From positions 10,770 to 74,769 of IMG/VR virus record IMGVR_UViG_3300010413_000016: a DNA stretch of 64,000 nucleotides. The stretch is one strand, 5' to 3'. A model generated the notes under the pieces. That model ran no database searches and had not been told where the DNA came from. It worked only from the letters and a program-made list of their open reading frames with translations. This DNA comes from a virus. Both the position numbers and the translations under genes were made by a program. Positions 43,672 to 61,335 of this stretch are shown here, piece by piece. Each line of letters begins with the position of its first letter. The first letter of the stretch is position 1.

Positions 43672-44004
43672 ATGAGCGAGCAATACCTGGTAGTACAGTC
43701 CGAATTTGATTATGCAGATGAGTTTGATGTGTACGGACTCTTCATTACAACAAAATCGGACTTTGATAAGATGATGGAAGAAGCGAAGAAGTACTTCGAT
43801 GTGCATGGTGATTATGAAGGGTGGTTTGGTACGAATGAGGCTATACTCATTGAATCGTTTGAGGACTATCAGGCAGGTCTGCACGTATCAGAAATTACAG
43901 AAGAGACATACCACACATTAAACAAAGCGCTAAATCCGTATTATAAAGGTGAGAGTAAACCCTTCTCATGTGGACGTTTTTTCTTCATCGAATTGGACGA
44001 GTAA
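43672..44004 (+). CDS. hypothetical acidic protein
   Basis: DYADEFDV...FGTNE motif. Confidence 0.65.
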   Translation: MSEQYLVVQSEFDYADEFDVYGLFITTKSDFDKMMEEAKKYFDVHGDYEGWFGTNEAILIESFEDYQAGLHVSEITEETYHTLNKALNPYYKGESKPFSCGRFFFIELDE

Positions 44005-44022
44005 TCCCACACTGGAGCTGGT

Positions 44023-44520
44023 TCACTCGACATTATCGTGTATTAAGTGAACCAGCTCCACAAACTCTTTATAGCTCATATTCTGTTTCATTTTATTTAC
44101 TCTCCACTGACATAACACTACATTACCTTCAATATACCCCAAAGTGCTGTCAACGCGATCTAACGATAACGTCGTTGAGCTTTCGCCACATGTTGACATC
44201 GGTTCGCCAGTGTAAAAACACTTTCCGTCTTGAGCATCCCACATCTTTTCTATTTCTTCCAATGTTATGTTGAACTCAAGTCCTTTATATTTGGCTCGAT
44301 TCTTTGCAGAGACAAAACGATATTGAATTGGATTGTCCTTTACCCATTGGTTAAAATTCTTCTTTGCGTTAGTAATATACACTTGTTTATCTTCTTCAGA
44401 TAATTGATGATACCGAGCCCTTGATTTTTTCTTGAGACATTCTTTACACGTCGATTTGCGTACGCCATAGAATTTTGATGGATCAGTCTCGCCACACGTG
44501 TTACATAGATGATTAGCCAT
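44023..44520 (-). CDS. HNH / His-Me finger endonuclease with N-terminal zinc finger
   Basis: CxxC...CxxC; CFYTG...SLDRVDS..GY..GNVVLC...VNxMK. Confidence 0.8.
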   Translation of the reverse strand: MANHLCNTCGETDPSKFYGVRKSTCKECLKKKSRARYHQLSEEDKQVYITNAKKNFNQWVKDNPIQYRFVSAKNRAKYKGLEFNITLEEIEKMWDAQDGKCFYTGEPMSTCGESSTTLSLDRVDSTLGYIEGNVVLCQWRVNKMKQNMSYKEFVELVHLIHDNVE

Positions 44521-44880
44521 GGTTGGTTCCTTTTTGTATTATATAGGGAAACAAAAACTCATGGTTATTTTTGTGCCCTCCCATTTTCAGAACGATTTTT
44601 TTTTTTTAAAAATTTTTTCGCACCACGATTTTTCGATGGCGGGATATTTTCCGGGGGGGGGAGCAGAAACTCTAATCTAAGATCCATAATATTAACGGGA
44701 GAGATGATTGTAGAAAATGTATGGGAACGTGTGGCGGAAATTGGCGGGCGATGTTTTCAGGGTGAAAAATTTGGTATACGTTGAACCTAGCAAAGAAGGG
44801 TATAATCGCCCATCGGTGTTCTTAGGGACCTGGCCTCTCGATTTTACCAGATTCTATTTTCAAAGTCAACTGTTGACTTT
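44521..44880. other. non-coding strand-switch region with homopolymer tracts
   Basis: T12 at 44596-44607, G9 at 44653-44661, palindrome AAAGTCAAC-T-GTTGACTTT at 44862-44880. Confidence 0.7.
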
Positions 44881-45048
44881 TAGTTAGTGGGAGGAGCCGA
44901 GTCTCCTTCCACTCAGATCATAGCATTCATGTTGTCTTCTTCATCAAGATGGTGTACGACTTGCTACGTGACTTGTCTCCTCCCTATCAACTGTCGTGAT
45001 TAGATTGATTGAAAGATATATTATCTCTCACCCTAACTATGAAGTCAA

Positions 45049-45147
45049 CTAGTACCCCATACCGACTGCAGCCACAGATGCTGCCATCAAGGTGATGATG
45101 GGAGTAACGATAACAACTGCCACAATGATGATCACTTTCTGTTTCAT
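45049..45147 (-). CDS. 32-aa single-TM peptide (MKQKVIIIV...GMGY)
   Basis: Own promoter and SD; paralog at 53059-53157; below the ORF-track size cutoff. Confidence 0.7.
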   Translation of the reverse strand: MKQKVIIIVAVVIVTPIITLMAASVAAVGMGY

Positions 45148-45211
45148 CTCATCTCTCTTTTCTCTCAACTGTTGAAGCTATTATAGCTCCAACAGTTGAA
45201 GAAGTCAACTG

Positions 45212-45547
45212 TTATTTTAATTCATACTTGCTAAACATATTGACGTCAATATCAGATGACAGAATTTGTTCAACTTCTTGTTTGATCTTGTTCATTCGTT
45301 TTGTGACAATGTCAACACTCACAGAACGTGATTGATTGATATAGTAATCACTAGATTCAATATAGTTTAAATTGAATTGTTCTGTGAATTTGACGTCTGC
45401 ATCATGAAAGTCAGACACAGTTGAATCTTCGTTCATAACAAAGATAATGAAGTCGTCATCAACACTACTGATGATACAGTTGTCTATGTTTGTATCAACT
45501 TCATGTTCAATAAACAGATAATTGAACGATATGAATACTTTTTTCAT
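45212..45547 (-). CDS. early hypothetical protein
   Basis: Cassette ORF with own promoter; start corrected. Confidence 0.6.
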   Translation of the reverse strand: MKKVFISFNYLFIEHEVDTNIDNCIISSVDDDFIIFVMNEDSTVSDFHDADVKFTEQFNLNYIESSDYYINQSRSVSVDIVTKRMNKIKQEVEQILSSDIDVNMFSKYELK

Positions 45548-45649
45548 GTGATCTCTCAGTTCTCTCAACTCAGAGATACTATCTCATGATTCATGATTGA
45601 AGACAACAGATGGAGAGATTCAGATAATGAATCTCTCCATCAACTGAAC

Positions 45650-46141
45650 TTATTTGCTCAGTTTCTTTTTGATGTTGTAGTGATATGTAGATGCACCTGC
45701 TTGAGTCATGTCAAGTTCTGCCATGAAACGAGTGATAACATCTTTTCTTGCAGGATGTTGACCATCAACTATCATACTGATGTATATTTCTTCTGCAATT
45801 TGTGACTTTGATACTTTCTTTTCTTTTTGTACTTTGACCGTTTCTACTTTCGGCTTTGTATCTTTGATCTTACGAACTTTCTTCTGTTCAGTTATCTTTT
45901 CTTGTTGTGCAATAAATTCAACAATTTCCTTTTCAGTTTCAGTAACTGCATCTTCAACACTCAACATCTTACTGTCAACATGTGACATCATCCATTCTTG
46001 TTTGTATTCTTCTTTCCATTGTTTGAATGGAATATAATCTTCAGAAGGAAATGATGCGGCTGCTTTCTCTTCTTTATACAGAGTCAGAAGTGAAATGTTA
46101 TCCGGAAATTGTGATTCGATTTGATTGATTACGTGTTGCAT
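45650..46141 (-). CDS. early protein with C-terminal RKxxIxRF...AGASTY domain; paralog of 49152
   Basis: Sequence similarity within the window. Confidence 0.8.
   Translation of the reverse strand: MQHVINQIESQFPDNISLLTLYKEEKAAASFPSEDYIPFKQWKEEYKQEWMMSHVDSKMLSVEDAVTETEKEIVEFIAQQEKITEQKKVRKIKDTKPKVETVKVQKEKKVSKSQIAEEIYISMIVDGQHPARKDVITRFMAELDMTQAGASTYHYNIKKKLSK
45681..45778. repeat. 98-bp perfect repeat, identical to 50277-50374
   Basis: Identical DNA encoding SMIVDGQHPARKDVITRFMAELDMTQAGASTY. Confidence 0.95.
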
Positions 46142-46472
46142 GTTGTTTTCCTCTCTCAATTGTTGAATCTATTATCTGTCCAGTTGGTCACTTTGTCAAC
46201 ATGTTTCTGAAATTAATTTCAATCGATTCATGTTTGTGTGCCAATGAGGACACCATCTAATAAAGAGAGGCTGAGGGCAACAATTAATTTGAGCCGATAT
46301 TTGATCGGCTGATAAGGAGATGTGATTAGAGTTCCAACTTGATGGTTGGAGATGATGGGTGGATCAATTTGATCACTTCAGATCCACCCATCATATAATA
46401 GGTGGAGGCTACAAGTAGCCTCCTGAGTCGTCCGCCGGGAGAGATGAGAGAGAGGAGTGGCGGACGACTCTG

Positions 46473-46792
46473 TTAACTTGCTAACTTCACTGTTGCCATC
46501 CCAAGTCCGTAACCGAACGCGAATATTGCGATCGAGAGGCCGAGAACAGCTACCTTGGCGTTGTTACCAAGTGCCCCAAAGAATAGGACGATGAGACCTA
46601 GCACGAAGGCGACAACCCAGAGGATAACCGCCATAACTATCATCATGGTTTAGTCCTGCCGTTCCATACTTGTAGAGCAACTCCCGTGAAGAAGCCAGAC
46701 AAACAGACTAGAGTAGAGATGACATCGTTGGTGGCAATGTAGGCGCCCATTCCGATAATCACACCAAGTAATCCAAGTACAATTGCTTTCAT
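46473..46792 (-). CDS. two small membrane-protein genes (46643-46792, 46473-46643)
   Basis: Hydrophobic two-TM peptides of about 50 aa; coupled. Confidence 0.55.
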
Positions 46793-46851
46793 CCCATCAT
46801 TCCACTTTTGTCTCTCAACCGATGACAGTATCATCCCACTTTTATGTGGTG

Positions 46852-47402
46852 TCAAGCGGCCCTTTTCAGCTCAGGATGGTTAGTTGCCATCCAACGAACA
46901 AGGTCAGGAATGTTGTTGCTGAACTCTTCGAACGGAACGGTCGTGTGGCTGAAGATTAGACCACCGCTGAGGAAGTCAATGTCGATCGTATTGTTTGCGT
47001 AGTTGATACAAGCTTTGCAGATCGAGTGTGCCTTGTTACGATCAGCTACATGAATGTACGTGACCTTCGCTGCAGGATAGTTGTTCGCCAAGTAGTCGTA
47101 CATGTTGCCATTTGCTTCAACTTGCATGTTAGTGTCCTCTCAATTGTTAGAGGAATTATAGCTCAGCCACTCAAAAGAGTCAACAGCTATTTGGATATTG
47201 CCCACATCGACGTGAGCGCATACAATGACCACCCAAGCCCTTCGAAGAAGACAAACACAATCAGTGCTGATTTCAGTGGAATCAGCCACTTAACGTGATA
47301 GTCGCCATACGCTTCGATCTTGTTGTGATCTTCAAACAAAATGAATCTGGCATATTCTATCAAGATCAATATGATCAAGAACTCAAAATGGATGGCGTTC
47401 AT
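46852..47402 (-). CDS. two early hypothetical genes (46852-47127; 47187-47402, membrane)
   Basis: SD-led cassette ORFs. Confidence 0.6.
47139..47189 (-). repeat. 51-bp promoter repeat identical to 53499-53549
   Basis: ctcaattgttagaggaattatagctcagccactcaaaagagtcaacagcta. Confidence 0.9.
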
Positions 47403-47434
47403 GTTTTCTTCTCCTTATTGGAGGAGTTATTCTC

Positions 47435-47842
47435 CTACAACACACTTTCAGCATCAACAGCTGAAAGTGGAAAACTTCCGACATAACGAGCTCGATTTTT
47501 ACGGAAGACAGCTTGATATTTGCCAATGTTCACGTCTTCGTGAGCATCAATTTGGTACACTTTAACAGAAAAGTTACTTTCATCCATTGCTTGACGAACA
47601 CGTGATGATATTGTCCAGTCTTTAAGTTGTTGTTTGGAGCCAAATCCAAAGAACCAATTACGCCGATCATCATATTCGATGCTATCCCACATGAGGAAAT
47701 GGTCATCTTCTGGCACTGGGTGTTTTGGGTCGGCGATCGAAGATACATATTCAAGGTCACCAAATGATACTGACCGATTGGTGGAATTGCGGTTGTACAT
47801 TCCTGTACCCTTGGCATGTTCGACGCGTAGAACTGTAATCAT
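47435..47842 (-). CDS. early phage protein, possible ADP-ribosyltransferase-like fold
   Basis: LRVEH...HPxPxxD...FGFGS..QL..W...QAVF; start corrected. Confidence 0.5.
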   Translation of the reverse strand: MITVLRVEHAKGTGMYNRNSTNRSVSFGDLEYVSSIADPKHPVPEDDHFLMWDSIEYDDRRNWFFGFGSKQQLKDWTISSRVRQAMDESNFSVKVYQIDAHEDVNIGKYQAVFRKNRARYVGSFPLSAVDAESVL

Positions 47843-47905
47843 TTGTGATCTCCTCTCAATTGATGGGGCCATTATAGCCCCACCCTGAGTTGAAGTCAAC
47901 GGGAG

Positions 47906-48503
47906 TCACAGACGTTTCAGTTCAGACTCCAAACGATTTCGAAAATTCTTATATTGGTCGGTTTCGCTGTACTTCATGTAGAAGTCATGGTATGCCGGGC
48001 GAGGAGGTTGGGACAACAACTTCTCCCTGCCGATTGTGATGTCGAATTTCATCGTTTTCCACGAGCTTTGAAATTCATACGATACGCTACCAAACACCTC
48101 GATTCCTTTCAGAATCATAAGGGAGCCAGTGTTAGCCCAGTTGCGTTCTTGTTCGGACTCAAATCCACACTGGCTAATCAGGTCCATCAAATCTTTCAGG
48201 ATACGGGTTTGCATTGACATGGCGATCTCCTCTCATTTAATAGAGATATTATAGCTCCATCCTATGATGAAGTCAACTGATTTTGTAAATCAGCAGGTCA
48301 GATTCTTCCCCAGCCTCACAGGCAAAGATTTCATCTACTTGTCCGAAGGTTGAGTATTTGAGGTAGGCTTCTTGTTTTTCATGTGAGTCTTCAATCTCAT
48401 AAAAGATGAAGGCTGCTTGCTGATGGGTATCAGCCTCAATCACCCGGTGACTAGATTCGCGAGTGTCATAACGATCGAACCAAATTACTAAGAACTGTGC
48501 CAT
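47906..48503 (-). CDS. two early hypothetical genes (47906-48220, 48273-48503)
   Basis: Each has its own promoter and SD. Confidence 0.65.
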
Positions 48504-48572
48504 CTCTCTTCAATTCTCTCTTGTGTTAATTGATGAGACCAGCATAGCACATCCTCGTCTTAGAGTCAACGA

Positions 48573-49091
48573 TTATTTGAATTCAAACGGACCATTAAAC
48601 TTCTGCTTGTTGATAGTAACAGAAGTGATAGAAGAGATTTCGAAAGTTCGGATGATGACTTTGTTTTCCAGCCCACCCTGACTCGATTCTGGCTTACTTT
48701 CAGGAATACCTTCGATTTGATCTTTGGGAGTTACGACACCATCTACTTCGTAATGAGTAGTTCCCTTGTTGAGGAAGATGACTTCGAGGTAGTGTTTCTC
48801 TTTATATTCTACGAAAGGAATTCCTTCCAGCCGAGTTCCCCAAGTACGAGGACCAACAGTAAACGACTCAGGATCTTTACCTTCTTTACCGAGACGACGT
48901 TTCACCATCTCACCGTAGCCACTTTTCTCTTTGTTCTGAAAGACCATGACATTAGAGCCAACGGTTACCTTCCGAACGCGACCTTGCAGAAGATTATGAC
49001 GACCACCACGAAGCTTGACGTTAGTGGAAGTGTCAATGCTGATGAAAGTTGCGCCATTAACAGCATCCATGATTTTGCGGATATTGTTCAT
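48573..49091 (-). CDS. conserved early phage protein
   Basis: Promoter cassette; start corrected to MNNIRK. Confidence 0.75.
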   Translation of the reverse strand: MNNIRKIMDAVNGATFISIDTSTNVKLRGGRHNLLQGRVRKVTVGSNVMVFQNKEKSGYGEMVKRRLGKEGKDPESFTVGPRTWGTRLEGIPFVEYKEKHYLEVIFLNKGTTHYEVDGVVTPKDQIEGIPESKPESSQGGLENKVIIRTFEISSITSVTINKQKFNGPFEFK

Positions 49092-49098
49092 TCGTGAT

Positions 49099-49149
49099 CT
49101 CCTCTCAATTGATGGGGCCATTATAGCCCCATCCTGAGTTGAAGTCAAC
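49099..49149 (-). repeat. 51-bp promoter-hairpin-SD repeat, identical to 51745-51795; one mismatch to 47850-47900
   Basis: ctcctctcaattgatggggccattatagccccatcctgagttgaagtcaac. Confidence 0.95.
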
Positions 49150-49151
49150 CG

Positions 49152-49631
49152 TTAGCTGAGTTTCTTTTTGATATTGTATTGATAAGTAGAAGCACCAGCT
49201 ACTGACATGTTCAGTTCATTCATGAAACGTTGTACTACTTCCTTTCTTGCAGGATGGTTACCATTGACCATCATTTCCTGATAGACCTTCAAAGCACGTT
49301 CAGCTTTGGTTGGAACTTTCTCTTTCTTGACTTTGACCTTAGGAGTACTTTTGATCTTCCGTACAGTTACCTTTTTCTCAGGTTTTGCCTGTTGTTGCTT
49401 TTGATCGTTTTCCATTTCTTCTTCAGACAACTTGACAGCAGTCTCAGCATCAACCAATTTTGAAGTTGAGTGAGTCTCCAACCATTCTACTTTGTATGAC
49501 GCTCTCCAATCCTGAAAGGAAGGAAACGGATCTGAAGGAAAATCCATCTGCTCTTTCTCAATCTTGTATAGAGCAAGCAGGTTGATGTTGTTGGGGAATT
49601 TAGTTTCGATTGATTTGATTTGCTTCGCCAT
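49152..49631 (-). CDS. early protein with RKxxVxRF...AGASTY domain; paralog of 45650
   Basis: Sequence similarity; tandem promoters upstream. Confidence 0.8.
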   Translation of the reverse strand: MAKQIKSIETKFPNNINLLALYKIEKEQMDFPSDPFPSFQDWRASYKVEWLETHSTSKLVDAETAVKLSEEEMENDQKQQQAKPEKKVTVRKIKSTPKVKVKKEKVPTKAERALKVYQEMMVNGNHPARKEVVQRFMNELNMSVAGASTYQYNIKKKLS

Positions 49632-49789
49632 GCGAAATCCTCTCTCTCGTTTGTTAACTGTTGAAGCTATTATCTTCTAAGTTGGGTCTCATGTCGACAA
49701 ACTTTTCAATTTATTTTTCGTTGAAACACTTGCTGCATGTGATAGAGAGACTATCCAATAAGATGGGCCTGTTGTCAACAGGAACAGCG

Positions 49790-49833
49790 AAAAAAATGGG
49801 TGGCAGCAAAATGAGAGAGGAGCTGCCACCCAT
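49790..49833 (-). terminator. intrinsic terminator with CU-rich loop
   Basis: 12-bp stem, loop UCCUCUCUCAUUUU, U tail on the minus strand. Confidence 0.8.
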
Positions 49834-49924
49834 AAGGGCAAGTTATCCGCCCTCAACATGTATTAATAATGCAACCGACAAAGAGAGTCCACAGGTTATG
49901 GGTTGAAATGCTTTGTCGGTTGCC

Positions 49925-50185
49925 TTAAACTGGTTTCTTGGCGACCTGCTCCATTATATAATCGCGCAGATCGTCTTTCATTTCTTCTTCACAATCATTG
50001 AAGTCGAACTTTTCAGTTCCATCAATGTTTGCAGCAAAAACGTTTGCCACACGTTGTGAAGTTTCATCAGAGAACCATTTGACGTTCAGACCAAGCTCAT
50101 CAGCGAGTTCTTGACGTGTGTACGTTTGTTCTGCATTGCCGAACTGATCAGCAGGAACATGAAACTGCGCATTTGGATCTGACAT
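49925..50185 (-). CDS. early acidic hypothetical protein
   Basis: Own promoter and SD. Confidence 0.65.
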   Translation of the reverse strand: MSDPNAQFHVPADQFGNAEQTYTRQELADELGLNVKWFSDETSQRVANVFAANIDGTEKFDFNDCEEEMKDDLRDYIMEQVAKKPV

Positions 50186-50245
50186 CTAACTTCTCCTCTC
50201 ATTGGATGGAGCCATTATCGCTCCATCCTGAGTTGGTGTCAACAG

Positions 50246-50680
50246 TTATTCAGAACACTCTTTCTTGCAAGTATTTTGATATGTAGATGCACCTGCTTGA
50301 GTCATGTCAAGTTCTGCCATGAAACGAGTGATAACATCTTTTCTTGCAGGATGTTGACCATCAACTATCATACTTTGGTAGATGGCAACTGCTTTTTCCT
50401 TTTTACTTGTACCATCTGTTGACTTTGTATGAGGTTTACGTTTGGTAGAGGTAGAAGTTGTCACTTCTTTCTCTTTTTTAGGAAGTGCAATTCTCCATTC
50501 TTTTGGCTCAGGAATTTCTTTGAGTGTGCCATCATCATGAGGAATCTTTACAGTAGACCCATTAGGAGAAATCTCGATAATGGCATGCACTGCAGAGTAG
50601 TCAACTACTTTGCCATTATGAGTGAACTCACCATTCTCATCTTCACCCTTCCACTCAACAAACTGACCTTTCGTAAACAT
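50246..50680 (-). CDS. early protein: SH3-like N-terminus + AGASTY domain
   Basis: FTKGQFVEW...GKVV N-terminus; C-terminus identical in DNA to that of 45650. Confidence 0.75.
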   Translation of the reverse strand: MFTKGQFVEWKGEDENGEFTHNGKVVDYSAVHAIIEISPNGSTVKIPHDDGTLKEIPEPKEWRIALPKKEKEVTTSTSTKRKPHTKSTDGTSKKEKAVAIYQSMIVDGQHPARKDVITRFMAELDMTQAGASTYQNTCKKECSE

Positions 50681-50896
50681 TTTTGATTCTCCTCTCTCAA
50701 CTGATGAGTCCATTATAGATCCACCGGTTGAAGAAGTCAACACAAATCATGAAATTTTTCTGTTGTTCCCAACTTCAACTATGTTGAAGGTGTGTTGATG
50801 TGAGTGATCAGATCTCATAACTGAATACTATCTTCGTGATCAAATGTAGTGATAGAAGTGGATATATGCCACACTTCTAGCCTCTATTTTCTACCA

Positions 50897-51196
50897 TCAG
50901 TGGTGGAAATCATCATCAAAGAACGCGAACAGATACACCCCTTCTTCCTCGAGATTGTCAGAGTTAAATGCTAATCCCTTTTTGTGGTCACCTTTGTACT
51001 CAACGACAAAGTCTCCCAGCTCTGGATAGTCAACTTTGGGATGCCCAGCTTCTTGCATCAGTTCTACCAATTTGGCTGTGTCTCGTTCACTGATGCATGC
51101 ATCGCCTGTGGACAAACTGAATGCATCGATATCAATTACTTGAGTAACGATATCGAACATCTGTTGTGCCCACTCATTCAGAATCATGCCAGACAT
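50897..51196 (-). CDS. early acidic hypothetical protein
   Basis: Own promoter and SD. Confidence 0.6.
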   Translation of the reverse strand: MSGMILNEWAQQMFDIVTQVIDIDAFSLSTGDACISERDTAKLVELMQEAGHPKVDYPELGDFVVEYKGDHKKGLAFNSDNLEEEGVYLFAFFDDDFHH

Positions 51197-51289
51197 CTCA
51201 TATCTCCTTCCTCAACTGATGATGCTACTATCCCACATCATCACAAGAAGATCAACAACATCCCACTACCATCCCACTTTCGTGGAACA

Positions 51290-51435
51290 AAAAAAGAGGC
51301 CGACATGTGCCAGCCTCGAAAAGGAGGACGCTTGTGGTCCTCAGGGGGAAGAAGTGGTCGGCGGCCAAGAGAGAGGAGAGAGGGCGGCCGCCAACCGGGT
51401 AAACTTTCAAGCTACATCGTTCTCCTCAACCGATG
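51290..51435 (-). ncRNA. candidate small RNA cassette (promoter, SD-ATG-TAG, hairpins, terminator)
   Basis: TTGCAT-17-TATAGT at 51441-51469; start-stop at 51412-51417; CU-loop hairpin 51356-51396; terminator about 51290-51317. Confidence 0.6.
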
Positions 51436-51458
51436 ACTCTACTATACTTTATTCCGTG

Positions 51459-53045
51459 TTAGGATGCAACAGGCTCCACCATGAAAGTTGTCAGCCAGTC
51501 GCATACATCTTCGTGGGTGAGCAGCTCAATACCTTCCTCACCATCGCGAACGTACCAACTACATTCGTGGGCACATAGAGTGCTTGTTCCAACAATGTCA
51601 GTTACACTAAACTCGTTGGCTACCTCGATGAACTGAGGAATCGTCAGTGATGAGCCATCTGAGTCGTTGTAGGCAATATCGCCATCAAGAGTATACTTGT
51701 GTCCATTGCCGAGTGTCGCTGCTCCATAAATGTGCATTTGCTTTCTCCTCTCAATTGATGGGGCCATTATAGCCCCATCCTGAGTTGAAGTCAACGTTAC
51801 ATTGACCAATAGGTCTCTGAAGCAGGAGAGCATGAGTTAGGAGTGTTGATCGGTTCCTGATACTCTTTGCCGCTCATCAGGTTGGTGCGAGTAACCATCT
51901 TCTCGATGTTCTCAGCAAAGTCACGACTGTCAGCAATCGCGTAGTCGTCCTTCGTAGCACCATCGTGGAGCTTACCTTTGTTGTCAAGACGAGTCAGCGC
52001 CGCTTTGGCTGCACGCTCAGTCTTGTAGCTCTCAACCCAACATCCCCACGACTTGCTCGGCGCTTTGAGGATCAGGGTGGTTTCTTTGTGATAGATTACG
52101 TAGCTCATTTTGTTTCTCCTCTCTCAAGTGTTGAAGTAATTATAGCCCAACACCTGAGAGAAGTCAACGGTTAGAGTTTCAACTCTTCTTTCAGCGCATC
52201 ATAGATTGCCTGGCGAAATTCTCGAGTCTCTTCGGAGTACATGTCCTTGATATTCTCGTCGATCCAGTCGGCGATCTCTTCACCATCTTTGATGCCTCCA
52301 TCACTGGCAAGCCACTCGTACGGACTTTCGATTGGGTTCTCGTAGTGGGCCATCATCAGACAGGCAATGTGTTTGGCTGCCTTTGTCATTGTGTTCATTT
52401 ATATCTCCTCATTTGATGAGGAGCGTCGCTCCTCATCAAACTGTTGACAACGTTTACTTTTCGCTGTTTTCGAGATGCTCTTTGTAGTACTCGATGGCAG
52501 CTTCAACGCGATCGTCACCATCGATGCCGTAGATCTTGTAGTCGCCCATCGTGGTGGTGTTCTCATCATTGATATACTCGAACCCACCATAGTACTCGAG
52601 TGAGCGGATATTGTGTGCCTTGGTGATGATCAGCTCGTCATTAAGGTCAACGAACACGTGACCAGCACGTGAGTCAAGGCCGATCTTGTCAGCACGAACG
52701 TATGGAAGATCCTCAATGACGTTGCCAAGCATCTCGTTTGCTTCGTCGATTACGTTCAGTAGTTCCATTGCTTCTCTCCTTTCGTGATTGATGGGGCCAT
52801 TATAGCCCCATCCTGAATTGAAGTCAACGTTCGATGTACTCACCGTTGAGCCAAGCCTGCATTACCTCTACAGTTTGACGTACTTGATCTTCGGTCATTT
52901 GGATGGAAGCAGGAGAACGGTCTCCTGGTACGATACCTTGGTTCAGTTGAAGACAACGACCTGGTGTGATACCACGGAATGAAGTCAACATTACTTCTTG
53001 AACGTTTCCAGTTTCATCGATTGCTGATTTCAGATTGATGCTCAT
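51459..53045 (-). CDS. five early hypothetical genes (51459-51737, 51797-52108, 52171-52398, 52454-52768, 52824-53045)
   Basis: SD-led cassette ORFs; 51797 has a NLMSG...TP..CSPASETYWSM motif seen in T4-type phages. Confidence 0.7.
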
Positions 53046-53058
53046 GATGCATCCTCCC

Positions 53059-53157
53059 TTAGTACCCCATTCCAGTGGCAGTGAACAGGGCGAGTCCAGC
53101 CAGGATGGTCGGAGTGGTGACTACAACTGCTGCGATGATGATTACTTCCTCTTTCAT
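53059..53157 (-). CDS. 32-aa single-TM peptide (MKEEVIIIA...GMGY)
   Basis: Own promoter and GAGAGGAG SD; paralog of 45049. Confidence 0.7.
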   Translation of the reverse strand: MKEEVIIIAAVVVTTPTILAGLALFTATGMGY

Positions 53158-53207
53158 GATGATCTCCTCTCACTATGAGTACATTATTGCTCAACCACAC
53201 CAAGAAG

Positions 53208-55309
53208 TCAACAGTGGTTGGGATCTTGGCCTGAGAGAACACACATGGCAATTGCCGTTGTCTTATTAACGCGTTTGGCATACGATATGAGGTTCTCGAC
53301 AGGAATCGATTCCTCGATATCATCGCTAACCTGCTTGTGGCACATCCCTTCAAGGGAAAGGGAGATCGAGTTGCTGGTGTAGCCATTCTCATGGCAAACA
53401 GCTTTGTCATCACCATACGCCCACGCAACAGCAAGAACGTAGAAGGCAGCGAACATCAGAGTAATCGGTAACAGGTGCTTTTTCATTTCATCTTTCTCCT
53501 CAATTGTTAGAGGAATTATAGCTCAGCCACTCAAAAGAGTCAACAGCTAATTAATCTCAATGTCGAATTCGTGAGCTGCTGAACGGTAGAATGTGTACAC
53601 GTCGCTGGTGCCGACCCCCTCACCTTTAGGAAAGCTCTCAAGACTGCAACAGACTGAGTACATCCGAGTAGATACATCATCATTGTGGATGTCAAGACCA
53701 AGATGGGCAGCGCAGCGATGCATTACACTGAGAACCAGATCAGTCGTATTGAAAGCATTTGCGTTATACTTGCTCATTGTCTTCCCTCTCTCAGATGTCA
53801 GGGTAAGTATAGCTCATCCTTGAGCTAAAGTCAACTACACGTTGAAGTAGACTGCAGTGCGACGACCATTAATATCGACGTATGCATAATCGGCAGTTAC
53901 GTGCTCCCTTACATCTTCTTCGTTGTTCCAATCGATGTTGGCGTTGATCTTGTTGATAGCAAGCTTGACCGCACGGTCGTTGGTTGTCTCATACGCATCG
54001 TAACCAACGTCTTTGTTCGCCTGTTCGATGCCATAGTGGCTTGCAATATAGTAGTTACCTTGGCAACCACACATGCAGCCAACCTTGCCGTTGTATGACT
54101 GCTTGACGTCTTCAAATTTGATCATCTTGGTGCTCTCCTCTCAAATGGTGGCCCTATTATAGGCCACCATTCAGTTGAAGTCAACAGTTGCAAACAGATT
54201 CAGAACTTACTAAACTCATCCGAGTATCGTAAATCCTGGAACGTTGGAAGATTACTACCGTCCCGTCGTTCAAGGTATGCCGCATACTGGCCAGTCCGCT
54301 TTTCTTGGTGCCTTGCCTTGTGACTCTTATTGAGGTATCGTCCCCAGCCCCGTTTCCTGTCCGCTTCACGGACCTCACGAGTCTGTCCACATCCACAAGC
54401 ACACTTTATTGTCACCATCTTTGCCATCGTAGAGTCCTCACCCGTCAATCTCATCAATGTTCATATCGTTACCACTCCTGCTATGCGAAAGTGCCTAGCT
54501 CAACTTTCCAGTCTGTATGTGAAAATCCACTTGGGAAAATGCGTTCGATCTCTGCAGTAATCTCTTTTGCAGAACTACTAACGTTAATGTACATTCCATC
54601 TCCAGGGCGCCTTACTTCTTCTCCTCGCTGGAAGATTGGGGATTTGCGAACCTTCTCATTGCTCATCGGATTCTGACTGAACATGTATCCTGGAATAAAC
54701 ACTTTGAAGTTGGTAGCTCCTGTAGAAGTAAGAAACGATTTGCTCATCACATGTCTCTCTTTGTGTTAACTGCAATTCCACTATAATCCCATTATAGTCC
54801 CACTTTCGTTAGATGTCAACGTCACTTTACATCAGCTGGACGGAAAGAGAGGGTAGCAGACTGCTACCCTCTCTGGAAACGTGTCAATCTTTGTGTTTTA
54901 AAAAAGCCGTTAGTTGTGTCGTGTCTGTGGTTTGCGTTAAGTGTTACATGTCTACTCACCTCCTAAGAGTTATTTTATTAGGTTCGTTCGTGTGTAAACT
55001 TTGATAAGAATTCCATTCTCCATCAACGGGAGAGATGGGTCAACGTTCTCTCCTTGCGTCCTGATAACTCTGAAGAGTACGAAGACGGGAGAGTAGGGTG
55101 TTAGTAGTATTTCGGAACTGGATGCCAAGTTGTTCCATCATATGGACAGATCGCTCATAAAAGGTCAACAGGCTACGAAGCTCATCGTCGGAGATTGCGT
55201 CACCACGCAGGAAAGCTTCGTTTGCTTCTTTGTTGAGAGACGTCATAACCATCGTGGCATCCTTTGTAAGAATTAGGGATGTCTGATCGGCCCCACTCCA
55301 ATACGCCAT
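53208..55309 (-). CDS. six early hypothetical genes (53208-53486 exported, 53547-53777, 53835-54125, 54200-54427 Cys-rich, 54481-54750, 55040-55309)
   Basis: Cassette organisation; CMCGC and CACGC motifs in two of them. Confidence 0.6.
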
Positions 55310-55423
55310 CAGACTCTCTGAGCCGTTCTACTCAGCCTTACCTCTAGGGATAACTATCCCATACAACTCCTGGCAGATCAACGCAAAAGTTCCACCAATA
55401 GTGGAACTTTTGCCGGGCCAGGT

Positions 55424-55990
55424 TTACGCTTTGGCTTCGGTGGACTCAGTCTGCTCAGCTTTGGCAGCCTTCTCGGCCTCCTTGGCAGCTTTGGCTTCGG
55501 CACGTTCCTTCGCTTTCGCTTCCTTCTCGGCAGCTTTGGCAGCCTTCTCGGCCTCCTTGGCAGCCAGAGCTTCGGCCTTTTCGGTTTCGGCCTTGACCTT
55601 CGCTTCAACAGCGGCCTTTTCAGCGGCAACGATCGCTTTGGTGTCGATGGAGGAAGCTGCCTTGATCTTGCCGTTCAGACCGTCAACGTAGTTCTTGACG
55701 GCAACAGCCGGATCGGTGGCATCGTTCGGGCCAGGCTTCAGGACGTGGGAGGTAACAACGGACAACTCGTTGTCCTTGGTCTCCTTCACGGAGTAAACGG
55801 TGACCAGGTCGCCAGACTCTTTCATGGCGTTGCGGTGCTGTTGGTAGATGGTCATCGCGTAGGCGGAACCGATGTCGAACTTCTCCATCAGAGCGTTGGC
55901 GGCGTCTTTGCGGGAAACCTTACCGGCCATTTTGTCCAGTTCGGCAAAGGCTTGCTGACGTACGGATTGTTTGTCGGTGTTACGTGACAT
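55424..55990 (-). CDS. early protein: AGASTY-like N-domain + A/K/E-rich repeats
   Basis: RKDAANALMEKFDIGSAYAMTIY; AAKEAEKAAKA repeats; biased codon usage; tandem promoters. Confidence 0.8.
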   Translation of the reverse strand: MSRNTDKQSVRQQAFAELDKMAGKVSRKDAANALMEKFDIGSAYAMTIYQQHRNAMKESGDLVTVYSVKETKDNELSVVTSHVLKPGPNDATDPAVAVKNYVDGLNGKIKAASSIDTKAIVAAEKAAVEAKVKAETEKAEALAAKEAEKAAKAAEKEAKAKERAEAKAAKEAEKAAKAEQTESTEAKA

Positions 55991-56139
55991 ATTTTGTTAC
56001 TCCTGTTACAGTTTAAGTTTGGGGTTGTTTACAGGGCTTATTATGCCCGATCTTCGCTCCCAAGTCAACTCCCAATTCAATTCAACTTTGCTGGCGTTTC
56101 CTTAGGGTGAAAATACTTTAACTCAGATACTGACTGAAG

Positions 56140-56430
56140 TCAACATCTGAAATGATTTTTAATTGCCTCAGAAATCAGAGAGTTAGCGGAAGCTCCCAAT
56201 GATTCGATATAAGCGTTAACTGCCTTCGTTGAGTTGATCGGCAATACGCCCTCCATCAGGAATTCCACCGCGTGGGAACTGGTATAGTTGTGGTGGAGAT
56301 CGTCAGCCACCATTGTTGCGATGAATTTGAACGTAGCGTTCCGGACATCCTTGTAGCTGTCGCAACCTTCAACGTTGTCTGCGATCCACTGACTGATATC
56401 GTCGGCGTTGGCAAAGTTCTCATGTGACAT
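56140..56430 (-). CDS. early hypothetical protein
   Basis: Own promoter and SD; start corrected. Confidence 0.6.
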   Translation of the reverse strand: MSHENFANADDISQWIADNVEGCDSYKDVRNATFKFIATMVADDLHHNYTSSHAVEFLMEGVLPINSTKAVNAYIESLGASANSLISEAIKNHFRC

Positions 56431-56484
56431 AGTCTTCTCCTCAAATGACGTGACCACTATAGCTTACGCCATCATATGGGTCAA

Positions 56485-57273
56485 CTAGAGGCTAACGTGA
56501 AAGTTAACAGTAGCACCCTTGTCCTCGAGTGTGGGTTGGATTGTCATAAACCATTTTGACTCTGGTTCAAAGAATGTATCGTACATCACGAGTCCGATGA
56601 AATTCCCCAGCGCCGCTCCAGCAAACTGGTCACTGAAGTGGTGGAGGCCTGATTCAATTCTGCCGTATGATGAGACAGCTGCCAAGTAATATGATCCAGC
56701 AATTGTCGAGTACTTTGCAACATCATTCATGTTGCTGTACTCTAGATTTCGTCGGATGAGGGCAGCTCGAGTAAACGCTGGTGTGGAGTGTCCGGATGGG
56801 AACGCTTCATACTCAACGTGACGAATTGTTCGATCAGGCTCTCGTCGACGGATGGCAACCTTCAGCTCGTTTGTCACCCAGTTGGACGTGTCGATGATTA
56901 CAACTTCACCAAGTATGCCCTTAGCCTTCGACGATATGCTTCCATTTGTAATTAGTGTAGATGCTATCCACGCATCAGTCAGCACATTCAGAGCATTATC
57001 ACTTGTCATAGCAGCATCGTGCTTGCTGCCATACACCCAGTTGTCTCTGAGAGCCGCTTGCGTCCACTCTTCATCTTTACCGGATGCTAGTGCAACAGCT
57101 GCCCCTGCTGCTGGAATCCACGTTCCAGGATCTTTCAAAGCTCGAACAGACGCATGCTTGAACTTCTCCCACGTTGGTGTAAGGTGGATACTCCCTCCCC
57201 AGTTTGTTTTGTGAGGAGAGGAAGCACAGCCAGTTAGCAAAACAATGATACTGATCAAGATGACTCTTAGCAT
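56485..57273 (-). CDS. PAP2-family phosphatase lipoprotein
   Basis: Lipobox LLTGC; K...RREP, FPSGH and GRIxxGLHHFSD motifs. Confidence 0.85.
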   Translation of the reverse strand: MLRVILISIIVLLTGCASSPHKTNWGGSIHLTPTWEKFKHASVRALKDPGTWIPAAGAAVALASGKDEEWTQAALRDNWVYGSKHDAAMTSDNALNVLTDAWIASTLITNGSISSKAKGILGEVVIIDTSNWVTNELKVAIRRREPDRTIRHVEYEAFPSGHSTPAFTRAALIRRNLEYSNMNDVAKYSTIAGSYYLAAVSSYGRIESGLHHFSDQFAGAALGNFIGLVMYDTFFEPESKWFMTIQPTLEDKGATVNFHVSL

Positions 57274-57473
57274 ATGTACATCCCTGTCAGATGGAATTAA
57301 GCGTGTTTTGCTTGCTCAAGGAGCTCAAGTTGGCGATACAACTCATCAAGATCAAAATTAAGTTCTTCGATCTCACCTTCGTTGTTCTCACCAGCTTCAC
57401 TCCGTGCAAACGCATCCTCAAGAGCTTCCTCAGTCTGGCGAATTTTATCTCTTGTGATTTTCTCGCTGTCCAT

Positions 57474-58016
57474 TTACCACGCCCCTTTTGCAAAGTTCTT
57501 TTTACAGTTGGCAACATAAGTAGAAGCACCAGCTGGAGTCATACCAATCTCGTCAACAAAACGTTGAATGGCATCTTTGCGAGAAGGGAACTTTCCGTTG
57601 TTCTCATCGACCATCTTTTTATACAATTCGATGGCCATTTCCTTTTTGGCACCCTTCTTTTTCTTGGGATTACCAGCTGCATCCAACTTGACGGGTTTAT
57701 CCTCTCGACTTCCCAACATCCAGGGATTTTTCTTGAGGTGAGTGTTGGCCTTTTCGGTTGCCAGTTCGAAAAGCTCGTCCATGTCAACGGTACCATTTTT
57801 CAAGTTCTGACGAACAGTCTCTTGAACGAGATACAGATAGTGCCAACGGATCGTTTCGTCGGTAGCGTCAGTATCATGACCAGACAACTCTTTGATGCGA
57901 TCACGATACAGTTCAGGAAGAACTTCACCTTCCACCTCATTCAGGTACTTGACTGCAGCCGTGAAGCTGTGAGTAGGAATGTCGTAATTCTGTAGAGTTT
58001 CGATTGCCTGATTCAT
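57474..58016 (-). CDS. early protein with C-terminal AGASTY domain
   Basis: PSRKDAIQRFVDEIGMTPAGASTY; start corrected. Confidence 0.8.
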   Translation of the reverse strand: MNQAIETLQNYDIPTHSFTAAVKYLNEVEGEVLPELYRDRIKELSGHDTDATDETIRWHYLYLVQETVRQNLKNGTVDMDELFELATEKANTHLKKNPWMLGSREDKPVKLDAAGNPKKKKGAKKEMAIELYKKMVDENNGKFPSRKDAIQRFVDEIGMTPAGASTYVANCKKNFAKGAW

Positions 58017-58088
58017 GATCTGTCTCCTCTCAATTGTTGAAGCTATTATCGCTCCGTCTTGAGTTGAAGTCAACTTATTTCTCGAAAG

Positions 58089-60373
58089 TTACCGTAGTTC
58101 CTTAATCCTTGCAATCAACTTATTGAGATTGTCTGCTGTATCCTGATAGTAGACAACGCCAGTCAACTGATCGGGTGTAGTGGGATTATCGTAAAGAGCC
58201 TGACATAGCTGGAACCCAGTCTGAGACCCAACCTGAACGTGCAAATGAGACCCGAGAATTGTTATCTCGCCATCAGCCATATCATCCTCATACCCAGAGA
58301 TGACAGCAGGGATATGGTTGGTTGTCAGGATATCCAACATTTGTTGTTCGTTCATAATCTGTCTCCTCTCAACTGATGAGTCTAGTATAGCAGCATCGTT
58401 CAAAGATGTCGACAATTATTTTGTGAACACCTCAAGATCAATGTCGTCGTTGATGCTGAACTCAAACTCACCAACATGTTCACGACCCTGTTGAGTCATC
58501 ACCCACACCACCCCATTTTCACATAATATAATGTTCAGTACTGTTTCACCATTGTACTTAATATGGGCATTTTCGGCAGCATACGTGACAGAGTCCTCAT
58601 CATCATAATCTTTGACAAGGATCCCATCTTCGATCAGTTGTTGTAATTTACCCATTTTTGCCTCTCAACAGCAATCTCATTCAGTTGACGATGATACTTT
58701 GTAAGACGACTATACCCTTTATCGTCCTTCTTTGTCCACCTTTCAATCTGCCATGCAGCAAGATAGCCGTTCTTTTTCCAGAACTTGGCAGTGAGAGAAC
58801 CACTTCGAGCATCAGCTCCTGTAAAGCCGATGCCGTTGTGAACTTCAGTGGTGAGGTGGGTTTGTTCTTCGGCAGTCTGCCGTGCAAGAAGACTGGAGAG
58901 AGCACGACCAACAACAGCCTCCACGTACTTCGGATTCGGATTGTCCAGCATTTGCTGAAGTGAATCTTTGGTGACGATCTTTGCTTGTTTGGCCATGTCT
59001 CTCTCCTCTCAAGTGATGGGGCCATCATAGCCCCATCGTAAGTTAAGGTCAACTCATTCAACAGTCACATCGTAATCGAAGTCAGGATGGCGCGACAAAG
59101 AGTAGAACTTGAAATAATGCCCAAGCTCATGGCATTTGTGAAAGAGTAATCTCCAACACCATTCTCCGAGATCATCCGCCACTGGTTCTTCAATATTGAA
59201 CGAGCCGACGGTAATGAACTTCAGAGGAGGAACCGTTACAGCTGGGTCATATATCTGAACACGGCATTTCTTCGTGGTTGTTTCCATATAGCATCTCCTC
59301 TCAAATAATAGAGATATTATTGCACATCCATGTGTAAGAGTCAACTATAATTACGTCTAAATGCCCACCCTTTTCCACCCTGCCATGTACCAGCGTGAAC
59401 ACCATTCTTATAGTAGAGTGTCATTTTGACTGGAGCTCCATCACCGTACGCTTCTTCAGTATATGGGCACGCAGTGATACCTTCAGCACCAATAGATTCA
59501 ACAAGACGTTGTTCGAATGCGCCTTTAGTCATTCGTTGCGTAAATAGCAAATCTGACATAGTAGTTCTCCTCAATTGATGGGGCTATAATAGCCCCATCA
59601 AAAGAGAAAGTCAATGGAAATTACTCACCCATCGCCTGTTTCAGGAGATCGTCAATCTCCTTAGTTTTGTCGATATCAGGTCCTGTGCAGAGATACGGTT
59701 CCAGATGAGGGACAACCTTGACGATTGACTCTACCGTACGACAGGTACGGATAGTGTTGAACGTTTCATCTGCCAAACGAAATGCATCGTTGGTGATGTT
59801 GGTATCTGTTTGGTTCAACATCTTTTGGGTAGTACAGTCGGTTGGAATGTAAGCATCCAGGTCAACATGAAGGTAATCTTCCTGACCATCATCTTCACTC
59901 CAATCGCACGCAGATGTTTTATCTTCATCATCGGAGATGACGATTTGAACGAAAGGAAACGGAAGCTTGAAAGTGAAGTTGTCAACCTTCATCAGTTCGT
60001 CCCACATGCCCGCCAACTTCCGAATAACATGGGTCCTGATGTCGGTTTCGTCACCGAAGTAACCGAACTTCGGTTGAAAAAATCCAGGATCCTTCACACC
60101 TTCGACAGTTTTGAATTTTTTTGCACTCACGGTGTCATCACCGTGCCAACTCAGCTGCAAGGCCACACGGCGAATAGGACCATCAGCAGCCAAAAAAGAA
60201 TCGACCATCGCGCGACACTGATCGGAGTAGGTTTTATCAAACACCTCCCCCGCAACCTCGTTCCAATGAGAGATAACAGTTTCGTGGAGGTTGTTGAGGC
60301 GATTCTCTACCACGTCGGCAACAAAAGTGGCCACCGCATAACGCTTATCATTCATGTTAACAGTACTGGCCAT
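58089..60373 (-). CDS. six early hypothetical genes (58089-58355, 58416-58655, 58634-58996, 59054-59287, 59341-59559, 59621-60373)
   Basis: SD-led cassette ORFs, most with their own promoter. Confidence 0.65.
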
Positions 60374-60448
60374 GATATTTCTCTCCGTTGTTGTTTAAGG
60401 ACAGGTTCATTATAGTTTAGGACACAGTTGAAGACAACACCAGAAAAC

Positions 60449-60477
60449 AAAAAGCCCCTCACGAGGAGGGGCTTTTT
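60449..60477. terminator. bidirectional intrinsic terminator
   Basis: AAAAAGCCCCTC...GAGGGGCTTTTT. Confidence 0.85.
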
Positions 60478-60492
60478 GGAGTGGTTGCTGCC

Positions 60493-60744
60493 TTACTTGG
60501 AGGCAGTGGCAGGGTTGGCCTTCGGCGTGGGCATCTCCCAACCTTTCTTGCCAGAAACGATGTTCTGGTAATAGGTGGCAGCGCCGTTGCTAGTCAGACC
60601 CGTCTTCGCGACCATCTCGTCGATGATCTCTTTGCGAGTGGCCGGAGTCTTGCGACGAGTCATGCGGGCAACGATGCCGATGGCCTGCTTCTTGGCAGAG
60701 GTGGGCTTCTTGGTGCTGGTGGCCTTGGTGGTTTTGGTAGCCAT
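60493..60744 (-). CDS. small basic stand-alone AGASTY-domain protein with histone-like K/T/A N-tail
   Basis: PATRKEIIDEMVAKTGLTSNGAATYY; three stacked promoters upstream. Confidence 0.8.
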   Translation of the reverse strand: MATKTTKATSTKKPTSAKKQAIGIVARMTRRKTPATRKEIIDEMVAKTGLTSNGAATYYQNIVSGKKGWEMPTPKANPATASK

Positions 60745-60987
60745 GTTGTATCACTCCTATGTGATTGACGTTTTGTTTAACTTCAGGTTCATGTTAACCT
60801 AATTTCAAACTTCAGTCAACACGTTTTGTTAACTTTTTGTTCCAGGCTTAGGCTTGTCCTGTTACCGCTTAACTGAGACCCACTATACTAAATGTCTGCT
60901 TTGGGGTCAACACTTGTTTCAAACTTCCGTTGGCGTCTTGCTTAACCAATGACTCCACCTTATATTAAAAGGGGGATGAAGTCAACA

Positions 60988-61209: not shown

Positions 61210-61335
61210 GGTCGTTCTCCTCTGTAACTGAAGCACACAATAGATGAGTTGCAGCAAGAAGTCAACCACATTTTGACGTTGCCTTTTTAAATAAGATTCG
61301 CGACAATATGTTCTCCATTTGAGAGGAGATAAATC

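Follow-up and report, generated by a model that had tools for sequence, protein, structure and literature searches.

Three GC-rich hairpins in the early gene array of an uncultured giant phage from marine sediment, apparently lytic, display loops that are exactly complementary to a Shine-Dalgarno (SD) tag carried by the phage's own early genes. We tentatively interpret these hairpins (HP1, HP2 and HP3) as anti-SD regulatory RNA elements, situated at the 3' ends of multi-promoter early units, that damp early translation.

To our knowledge, temporal control in lytic phages is explained almost wholly by changes in RNA polymerase together with a few proteins that act on mRNA (RegB and RegA of T4). 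It is possible, if somewhat doubtful, that this giant lytic phage possesses a class-wide, RNA-only translational off-switch, in which 15 or more tagged early genes and mirror-loop hairpins form an RNA counterpart of T4 RegB. A full-text literature search of limited extent turned up no account of a system of this kind in lytic phages. If true, this would be a new regulatory layer, with unrelated early genes placed under one long tag and a few hairpins showing its complement, and it would offer synthetic biology a simple, portable design in which a single tag is matched by a single loop RNA. The locus lends itself to direct testing, as its leader is short and defined, its three loops are likewise defined, and one of the loop RNAs has a candidate promoter and terminator.

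Structure and placement of the hairpins

A preliminary description of the window (the whole stretch of 64,000 nucleotides analysed, to which all positions refer) had placed three hairpins with dissimilar stems on the transcribed strand. Reading the minus strand bears out their positions (Table 1), and the stems of HP1, HP2 and HP3 are indeed unrelated in sequence. Their predicted folding energies are -22.7, -23.1 and -21.8 kcal/mol, respectively, with z-scores of -6.3, -6.6 and -5.2 relative to shuffled sequences, none of which (0/200) was equally stable. In the context of the transcript, all three loops are predicted to be about 0.99 unpaired.

The same description had held that every loop carries a complement of the SD, and this is the case: the 8-mer CUCCUCUC, exactly complementary to the early SD tag GAGAGGAG, was found in HP1, HP2 and HP3, its first C serving in HP2 as the closing base of the stem. 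A 9-mer, UCCUCUCUC, is likewise common to the three loops and is absent from the rest of the minus strand of the 74.8-kb contig, and within the HP3 loop lies UCUCCUCUC, which is complementary to GAGAGGAGA over 9 nt. The placement of these motifs is not random. On the transcribed strand of the early array (44000-61300, 17.3 kb), CUCCUCUC occurs three times versus 0.25 expected (Poisson P = 2e-3), and all three copies sit in hairpin loops closed by stems of at least 11 bp, a loop class that makes up 1.2% of the array. A scan of the entire 74.8-kb contig found no GC-rich hairpin beyond HP1-HP3 whose loop consists purely of C and U.

Table 1. Positions of the hairpins, their surroundings and the SD tags (window coordinates)
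Feature	Position	Strand	Description
HP1 hairpin	46470-46425	minus	12 perfect base pairs (9 G-C), 46 nt
HP1 loop	46458-46437	minus	22-nt C/U loop ACUCCUCUCUCUCAUCUCUCCC
HP1b hairpin	46423-46404	minus	GGAGGCUA-CUUG-UAGCCUCC; same 3' region as HP1
HP1c hairpin	46394-46352	minus	14-bp stem, 15-nt loop; same 3' region as HP1
Gene after HP1	46141-45650; SD 46149-46157	minus	variant SD GAGAGAGGA
HP2 hairpin	49833-49796	minus	12 perfect base pairs (8 G-C), 38 nt
HP2 loop	49821-49808	minus	14-nt loop UCCUCUCUCAUUUU
Rest of HP2 3' UTR	49837-49923	minus	13-bp hairpin with 27-nt loop (49923-49871) and 9-bp hairpin (49855-49833 region)
Gene after HP2	49631-49152; SD 49638-49648	minus	variant SD GAGAGAGAGGA
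HP3 hairpin	51396-51356	minus	11 base pairs including one G-U, 41 nt
HP3 loop	51385-51367	minus	19-nt loop GCCCUCUCUCCUCUCUCUU
HP3 unit	51289-51469	minus	layout of gene cassette, gene absent
HP3 unit promoter	-35 TTGCAT 51469-51464; -10 TATAGT 51446-51441	minus	17-nt spacer
HP3 unit SD and ORF	SD GAGGAGA 51427-51421; ATG-TAG 51417-51412	minus	start-stop only
HP3 unit 6-bp hairpin	51342-51324	minus	3' side is UCCUCCUUUUC; between HP3 and terminator
HP3 unit terminator	51317-51296; U7 51295-51289	minus	
SD tag GAGAGGAG (n=13), proposed targets	47850, 48227, 49099, 50193, 50689, 51745, 52116	minus	plus-strand coordinates
SD tag GAGAGGAG, continued	53164, 54135, 58024, 58363, 59003, 59295 (span 47850-59302)	minus	plus-strand coordinates
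Divergent early-gene tags GAGAGGAG (two)	61321-61328, 61586-61593	plus	upstream of genes 61336-61584, 61601-61864

All three hairpins are located past stop codons, at the 3' ends of early transcripts; HP1 starts 2 nt beyond the stop codon of a 57-aa gene (46646-46473). Neither HP1 nor HP2 has a promoter of its own. The proposal that HP2 doubles as a terminator also stands, since a T run (49796-49790) directly follows its stem, a property that HP2 alone among the three possesses. HP2 is thus the intrinsic terminator of the unit that ends with an 86-aa gene (50185-49925), and its loop is unusually large for one. No U-tract directly follows the stem of HP1 or that of HP3.

Such features raise the question of whether the hairpins have a purely structural role at 3' ends, as terminators, as barriers to exonucleases or, for IG1, as part of a site where Rho loads. 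The loops would then have no function in base pairing, and the correspondence between loop and tag would arise as a by-product of low complexity; we regard this as unlikely. HP2 is a terminator and HP3 lies 40 nt upstream of one, while IG1 lacks a U-tract terminator and has a C>G bubble at 46372-46255 (C 0.29-0.32, G 0.09-0.12); Rho binds YC-rich RNA. The tag and the loops are also both of low complexity, (GA)n- and (CU)n-like, and composition-matched shuffled loops still pair fairly well with the tags, binding early sites equally well in 11/200 cases for HP1 and 17/200 for HP2. For HP3 the count was 0/200, however, and a real loop that outperforms 200/200 shuffles argues against a by-product. 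So does the occurrence of 3/3 anti-SD 8-mers in loops covering so little of the region, which chance explains poorly. Ordinary terminators of the same array have loops of 3-5 nt, which marks the large C/U loops as something additional; because large loops weaken intrinsic terminators, the 14-nt loop of HP2 calls for a reason. Rho, moreover, is not needed by HP2 or HP3.

The loops are long, unstructured, pyrimidine-only and presented by a clamp, as might befit docking sites of ribosomal protein S1 or of an RNA-binding protein, from phage or host, that prefers pyrimidine-rich loops. Many early proteins of the phage lack a known family, but no candidate was identified and an exact complement of the tag in 3/3 loops would be unnecessary for protein recognition, which makes this explanation improbable.

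Predicted pairing with the early Shine-Dalgarno tag

The tag GAGAGGAG stands upstream of 15 early genes, within a conserved cassette whose leader of about 25 nt follows the pattern AUCAAUUGAGAGGAGA-N6-AUG. The 13 minus-strand tags lie 6-9 nt ahead of an ATG in early cassettes. Only early genes carry the tag, late genes having weak SDs. The early cassettes therefore do share an SD that the loops match, as had been claimed from the sequence, the exact complementarity extending over 8-11 nt. Mean predicted duplex energies are -12.2/-9.3/-13.3 kcal/mol for early genes versus -8.4/-6.3/-8.9 kcal/mol for late genes, and in genome-wide duplex scans the start regions of early genes rank at the top of the sense-strand target lists. 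Selectivity of the loops for early over late genes is supported. The first genes of the hairpin-bearing units have SDs of the form GAGAGGA(G/C), for which the predicted duplex energies range from -12 to -17.5 kcal/mol. Predicted loop pairing amounts to -15 to -27 kcal/mol, as compared to -12.8 kcal/mol for the canonical 16S tail CACCUCCUUUCU assumed for the host.

These properties suggest how the hairpins might operate, provided that they are transcribed and accumulate; no RNA sequencing run was found to contain this DNA. The GC-rich stem (about -22 kcal/mol) would keep a C/U loop of 14-22 nt open, and this loop could pair over 8-11 nt with the private tag of early mRNAs, (UU)GAGAGGAGA or GAGAGAGGA. 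The resulting duplex would block access of the 30S subunit, lowering early protein synthesis while sparing late; exclusion of 30S from early mRNAs is expected because predicted loop pairing exceeds that of the 16S anti-SD tail. Since the hairpins lie at or adjoin terminators, the 3' fragments that bear them would probably outlast the bodies of the mRNAs and could then act in trans, and HP3 may additionally be produced as a separate RNA of about 150 nt. Against this scheme, the loops share early promoters with their targets, and each transcript has at most one loop versus one to several SDs. Shut-off in trans consequently requires an unproven difference in RNA stability, through which, as pure conjecture, a delay in timing could also arise.

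Pairing within the same molecule accounts equally for the data behind the trans reading. In that case the loop would either fold back on the SD of its own transcript, as in icaR, or serve as an insulator that silences the next gene on read-through, leaving that gene reliant on its own promoter. Each hairpin-bearing transcript has tagged SDs and the mRNAs are short; furthermore, the phage apparently uses a candidate cis anti-SD element at 52440-52402, and icaR provides a precedent (PMC3868564). Candidates for insulated genes are the first genes past HP1 and HP2, two paralogs that share 49% identity, each with a GAGAGAGGA-type SD and a promoter of its own that is built differently (TTGACA/TCGACA-17-GATAAT). 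The gene after HP1 has the SD GAGAGAGGA, which complements the loop 9-mer UCCUCUCUC exactly; the SD of the gene after HP2, GAGAGAGAGGA, matches the HP1 loop perfectly over 11 nt and the HP2 loop over 9 nt. We nonetheless consider action in cis rather unlikely. A diagonal preference is absent, since each loop pairs at least as well with the SDs of other units as with those of its own; strong terminators after HP2 and HP3 imply that read-through should be slight; the gene that follows HP3 (51196) lacks any exact match to that hairpin's loop; and the HP3 unit resembles a free-standing RNA.

That the loops chiefly hit host mRNAs with strong SDs, and so effect host shut-off, seems more improbable still. 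Their CUCC/CCUC cores could pair with any GGAG-type SD, and UCCUCCUUUUC in the HP3 unit is near the canonical 16S tail, but the match runs past the GGAG core into GAGA flanks that are phage-specific.

The HP3 cassette and its relatives

Judging from its sequence, the HP3 unit resembles an independent sRNA gene, because a standard promoter/SD cassette there holds only ATG-TAG, followed by a folded RNA and a U7 terminator. Its -35 element matches at just 3/6 positions.

In a coarse comparison with relatives from mangrove metagenomes, the HP3 block is kept with 3-5 differences per ~480 nt, and the HP2 region is kept in one such contig with 7 differences in 342 nt, the neighbouring cassettes being 5-12% different or replaced. 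The conserved block includes an adjacent 92-aa gene with the same identity of ~99%, so that recent exchange would fit the conservation of the HP3 block equally as well as selection on the RNA.

Comparison with known regulators

Rfam covariance models gave zero matches at the gathering score in the whole window, and only chance-level matches (E of 0.4 or higher) at 46100-51600. The hairpins can be compared with the Cuckoo/CcsR (alpha-r14) sRNAs of Alphaproteobacteria, a tested precedent for the design. These are hairpins of 24-50 nt in which the stems vary strongly and a C/U-rich anti-SD loop motif, CCUCCUCCC, is the sole conserved part, and which have loops of 9-27 nt, occur in multiple copies and are derived from a 3' UTR in R. 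sphaeroides (PMC4615179, PMC8034643). The phage hairpins are similar in size (46, 38 and 41 nt, with loops of 22, 14 and 19 nt) and in having unrelated stems. They differ in that their loops carry UCCUCUCUC/CUCCUCUC, with CCUCCUCCC in 0/3, and in that each phage site has one C/U-loop hairpin, the sites being 1.5 and 3.4 kb apart, whereas Cuckoo/CcsR hairpins occur as 2-4 adjacent copies. In addition, they are phage-encoded, and their motif is the mirror of a tag that only the phage's own early genes carry.

Also tested is the icaR mRNA of Staphylococcus aureus, in which a UCCCCUG motif within a long 3' UTR pairs with the mRNA's own SD, blocks initiation and creates a substrate for RNase III (PMC3868564). 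The phage likewise appears to place a pyrimidine-rich motif in the 3' UTR that is complementary to an SD of the same mRNA. In icaR the pairing takes place inside a single mRNA and affects one gene, whereas a single phage loop could serve many identically tagged genes. C-rich-loop sRNAs of Firmicutes such as S. aureus RNAIII employ UCCC hairpin loops as seeds on ribosome-binding sites (PMC4615179), but theirs is a short UCCC core, they are host-encoded regulators of virulence and metabolism, and the sequences are unrelated.

Phages themselves provide two further comparisons. The c4 antisense RNA of P1 and P7 is cut from the operon of its target and has loops complementary to the target's ribosome-binding region (PMC12197685); it acts on one operon (ant) in temperate-phage immunity, whereas here some 15 or more early genes share the tag and the phage is apparently lytic. 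The endoribonuclease RegB of T4 inactivates early mRNAs at the SD by cutting GGAG and leaves most middle mRNAs, and every late one, intact (PMC3014915). RegB is a functional analogue but a protein nuclease, while the agent proposed for the present phage is an RNA.

Cassette plan of the early-gene array

The window spans bases 10770-74769 of an IMG/VR virus contig (74.8 kb, 23% complete by CheckV) of marine-sediment origin. Mangrove metagenomes contain related sequence, and no RNA run is listed as containing this DNA. Genes for tail-fibre-like proteins, RIIA/RIIB and homing endonucleases on the plus-strand part mark the virus as a large myovirus; a search of the phage DNA found no tRNA or tmRNA. 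The minus strand from ~44000 to 61300 is a dense run of short genes, mostly of no known family, that follow a near-identical cassette plan: gTTGACT-17-TATAAT, a leader of ~25 nt, TTGAGAGGAGA, 6-9 nt, and ATG. A promoter scan returned 66 promoter-like sites versus 27 expected, and in many early promoters an inverted repeat (GATGGGGC/GCCCCATC or a variant) encloses the TATAAT -10 box in its loop. The 8-mer GAGAGGAG, a private Shine-Dalgarno (SD) sequence that we refer to as the tag, stands ahead of 13 minus-strand genes plus 2 divergent plus-strand genes (61336, 61601), and a variant SD, GAGAGAGGA, is found in 4 genes. The SDs of the plus-strand late/structural genes are short and weak and lie in A/U-rich leaders. 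Most cassettes adjoin one another with no terminator between them, and from the promoter and terminator maps we infer that the few 3' ends discussed below would each gather transcripts from several upstream promoters.

Three hairpins with long pyrimidine loops

A preliminary description had pointed to three GC-rich minus-strand hairpins, HP1, HP2 and HP3, with C/U-rich loops complementary to the tag. All three were confirmed on the sequence, none of 200 shuffles folded as well as HP1, HP2 or HP3 (0/200 each), and the loops are predicted to be ~0.99 unpaired when the surrounding transcripts are folded. A contig-wide search for GC-rich hairpins whose loops consist entirely of pyrimidines returned these three and nothing else comparable. 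The ordinary terminators of the array have loops of 3-5 nt (60478-60448, 55413-55383, 45641-45609, 51317-51296), and the long C/U loops are therefore an addition rather than the usual terminator style of the phage. On its transcribed strand, the 17.3-kb array has 3 copies of CUCCUCUC versus 0.25 expected (P = 2e-3), and 3/3 lie inside the HP1-3 loops, with the loops of hairpins having stems of at least 11 bp making up 1.2% of the array (placement chance ~2e-6). This excess and the all-in-loop placement imply that the anti-tag loop feature is real and not a product of chance.

Hairpins HP1-3 and inverted repeats around the -10 box of early promoters (the latter occur at other sites as well)
Feature	Coordinates	Strand	Stem	Loop	Energy (kcal/mol)	z
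HP1	46470-46425	-	12 bp	22 nt	-22.7	-6.3
HP2	49833-49796	-	12 bp	14 nt	-23.1	-6.6
HP3	51396-51356	-	11 bp, one G-U	19 nt	-21.8	-5.2
Promoter inverted repeat	49111-49133	-				
Promoter inverted repeat	51757-51779	-				
Promoter inverted repeat	52790-52812	-				
Promoter inverted repeat	59015-59037	-				
Promoter inverted repeat	54144-54171	-				

The three sites differ in their surroundings. The HP3 unit is laid out exactly like a gene cassette, with a -35 TTGCAT that overlaps the stop of a 92-aa gene, a 17-nt spacer, a -10 TATAGT and TTGAGGAGA, and its coding part, checked on the sequence, consists of ATG-TAG only. HP3 is followed by a 6-bp hairpin with the 3' side UCCUCCUUUUC and then by a 9-bp terminator with U7. 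This start-stop layout is the strongest sign that the unit may specify a dedicated non-coding RNA of ~150 nt. Besides the start-stop at 51417-51412, a second one occurs in the array at 54944-54964 (-), with the perfect SD AGGAGGUGA, 6 nt and AUG-UAA, in a 220-nt non-coding gap. HP2 is the terminator of a transcription unit that ends with an 86-aa gene, and is preceded by two other hairpins within a 135-nt 3' UTR. HP1 starts 2 nt past the stop of a 57-aa membrane-like ORF and is followed by four more hairpins with no U-tract. One of these, HP1c (46352-46394, -), has an outer stem in common with HP2 (AUGGGUGG/CCACCCAU) that is similar to the arms flanking the -10 box in the promoter repeats, and the two kinds of hairpin may have a common origin.

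The intergenic region after HP1 has a C-rich, G-poor stretch (46255-46372, -; C 0.29-0.32, G 0.09-0.12) with no U-tract terminator, which may be a Rho loading site. Rho loading in this region and purely structural roles of the hairpins are possible, but they leave unexplained why all three loops, and no other place, contain an exact complement of the tag. The most economical reading of the sequence is that HP1-3 would serve as anti-SD regulatory loops.

Several other readings were ruled out. The loops cannot be plus-strand SDs, as that strand has no suitably spaced start codon, and small ORFs across the hairpins (49833-49711, 51410-51252) lack a credible SD or start; for a coding HP3 cassette, the well-placed start yields only ATG-TAG. 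A plus-strand RNA with CsrA-type GGA loops is precluded by the terminators and promoters, which set the minus strand as the transcribed one. A pseudoknot between the HP1 loop and the adjacent GGAGG would have to span a 12-bp stem with a 1-nt linker, and in HP1b, a further hairpin of the same region, the GGAGG bases are already taken up. The polypyrimidine tracts are short, and H-DNA at them has no support.

Predicted pairing with early SDs in cis or in trans

Predicted duplexes between the loops and the SDs of tagged early genes have energies of -15 to -27 kcal/mol, and those for 28 large plus-strand genes fall mostly between -3 and -12. On the same early SDs the canonical 16S tail CACCUCCUUUCU, assumed here for the host, gives -12.8. 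When the entire contig was scanned, every loop had its best sense-strand partners in early translation start regions (58996, 52108, 50680, 49631, 48503, 46141). Composition-matched loop shuffles bound as well as the real loop in 0/200 cases for HP3, 11/200 for HP1 and 17/200 for HP2; thus, part of the loop affinity derives from plain C/U content, to which sequence order adds.

The preliminary description went further and cast the loops as trans-acting antisense elements that could shut off early-gene or host translation and, with the promoter array, would form an early-gene timing circuit. This proposal is supported in part: anti-SD regulation as such is consistent with the exposed loops, the complementarity to the tag and the preference for early over late genes. 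The duplex comparison does not separate cis from trans action, because each loop has no preference for its own unit and is predicted to pair no less well with the SDs of the others. A cis role is kept alive by the genes directly after HP1 and HP2 (45650-46141 and 49152-49631, -), which are paralogs of 49% identity with their own promoters of different build and with the variant SD GAGAGAGGA, the exact complement of a 9-mer common to all three loops. The HP1 and HP2 loops could then act as an "insulator" by pairing with the SD of the gene that follows. These paralogous proteins of ~160 aa belong to no Pfam or PHROG family, and their C-terminal segment is conserved. Homologs of 49-69% identity occur in other metagenome contigs (P0008-P0011), with P0009 (35 kb) and P0010 encoded on JGI contigs.

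Two further elements of the array combine SD-like and anti-SD-like sequence. At 52402-52440 (-), ahead of gene 52398-52171, which lacks a promoter, lies a three-part element made up of a copy of the SD (GAUGAGGAGC), an anti-SD sequence (GCUCCUCAUC) and the true SD itself (AUGAGGAGAU). In the minimum-energy fold the copy and the anti-SD form 14 bp (-25.9 kcal/mol, z -5.5), and a predicted alternative 8-bp hairpin would mask the true SD. In these folding models the element looks like a cis translational switch. At 54846-54874 (-), the arms of a 13-bp palindromic hairpin pair an SD-like AGAGAGGG with an anti-SD-like CCCUCUCU.

Known systems and relatives

Cuckoo/CcsR RNAs (PMC4615179, PMC8034643) resemble HP1-3 in having variable stems, a conserved anti-SD loop and a 3'-UTR origin. 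HP1-3 do not belong to that family: their loop motif differs and they do not follow its adjacent-hairpin rule. Together with an Rfam search that matched the hairpins to no known RNA family, this points to likeness in mechanism and not to homology. A MAFFT alignment did not match HP1-3 by structure, and descriptor scans were therefore used in place of a covariance model. The design also matches that of the icaR 3' UTR (PMC3868564) and of C-rich-loop sRNAs. The closest phage precedent is the c4 RNA of P1/P7 (PMC12197685), and the closest functional analogue of the proposed role is T4 RegB, which targets the SDs of early mRNAs and so inactivates these transcripts (PMC3014915).

No DNA match, near or distant, was found in the annotated phage collection, no relative in IMG/VR by two neighbouring proteins, the promoter palindrome or homolog P0009, and no match to the 92-aa protein or the cassette leader among JGI metagenome contigs. 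Contigs of four runs were placed on 45000-53000 and revealed mangrove relatives. In these relatives the block 51259-51761, comprising the 92-aa gene and the HP3 unit, has 3-5 substitutions and one 8-nt length difference, and the cassettes next to it either diverge by 5-12% or have been swapped. The length difference most likely lies outside the HP3 loop, because a contig spanning 51366-51700 does not have it. HP2 is covered by one contig (49790-50131) with 7 substitutions. At this coarse level, the HP2 and HP3 elements are kept in relatives. The 92-aa gene is equally conserved, however, and retention of the block may reflect recent exchange rather than selection on the RNA. Related-phage contigs also join cassettes in other orders or skip them whole (e.g. 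49149>50694, 50243>51798, 50680>51211), with breakpoints on cassette borders, and the early cassettes seem to be shuffled as units.

A conserved plus-strand protein identified 39 distant relatives by full-length or partial matches (26-52% identity). These lack the early-array architecture altogether, the promoter array included, show no comparable C/U-loop hairpin nearby, and are therefore uninformative for or against the loops. In two of them, L033 (8054-8087, +) and L035 (3085-3118), the marker gene is closely preceded by a GC-rich terminator hairpin of 12 bp whose loop, UCCCUCCCUG, is also anti-SD-like.
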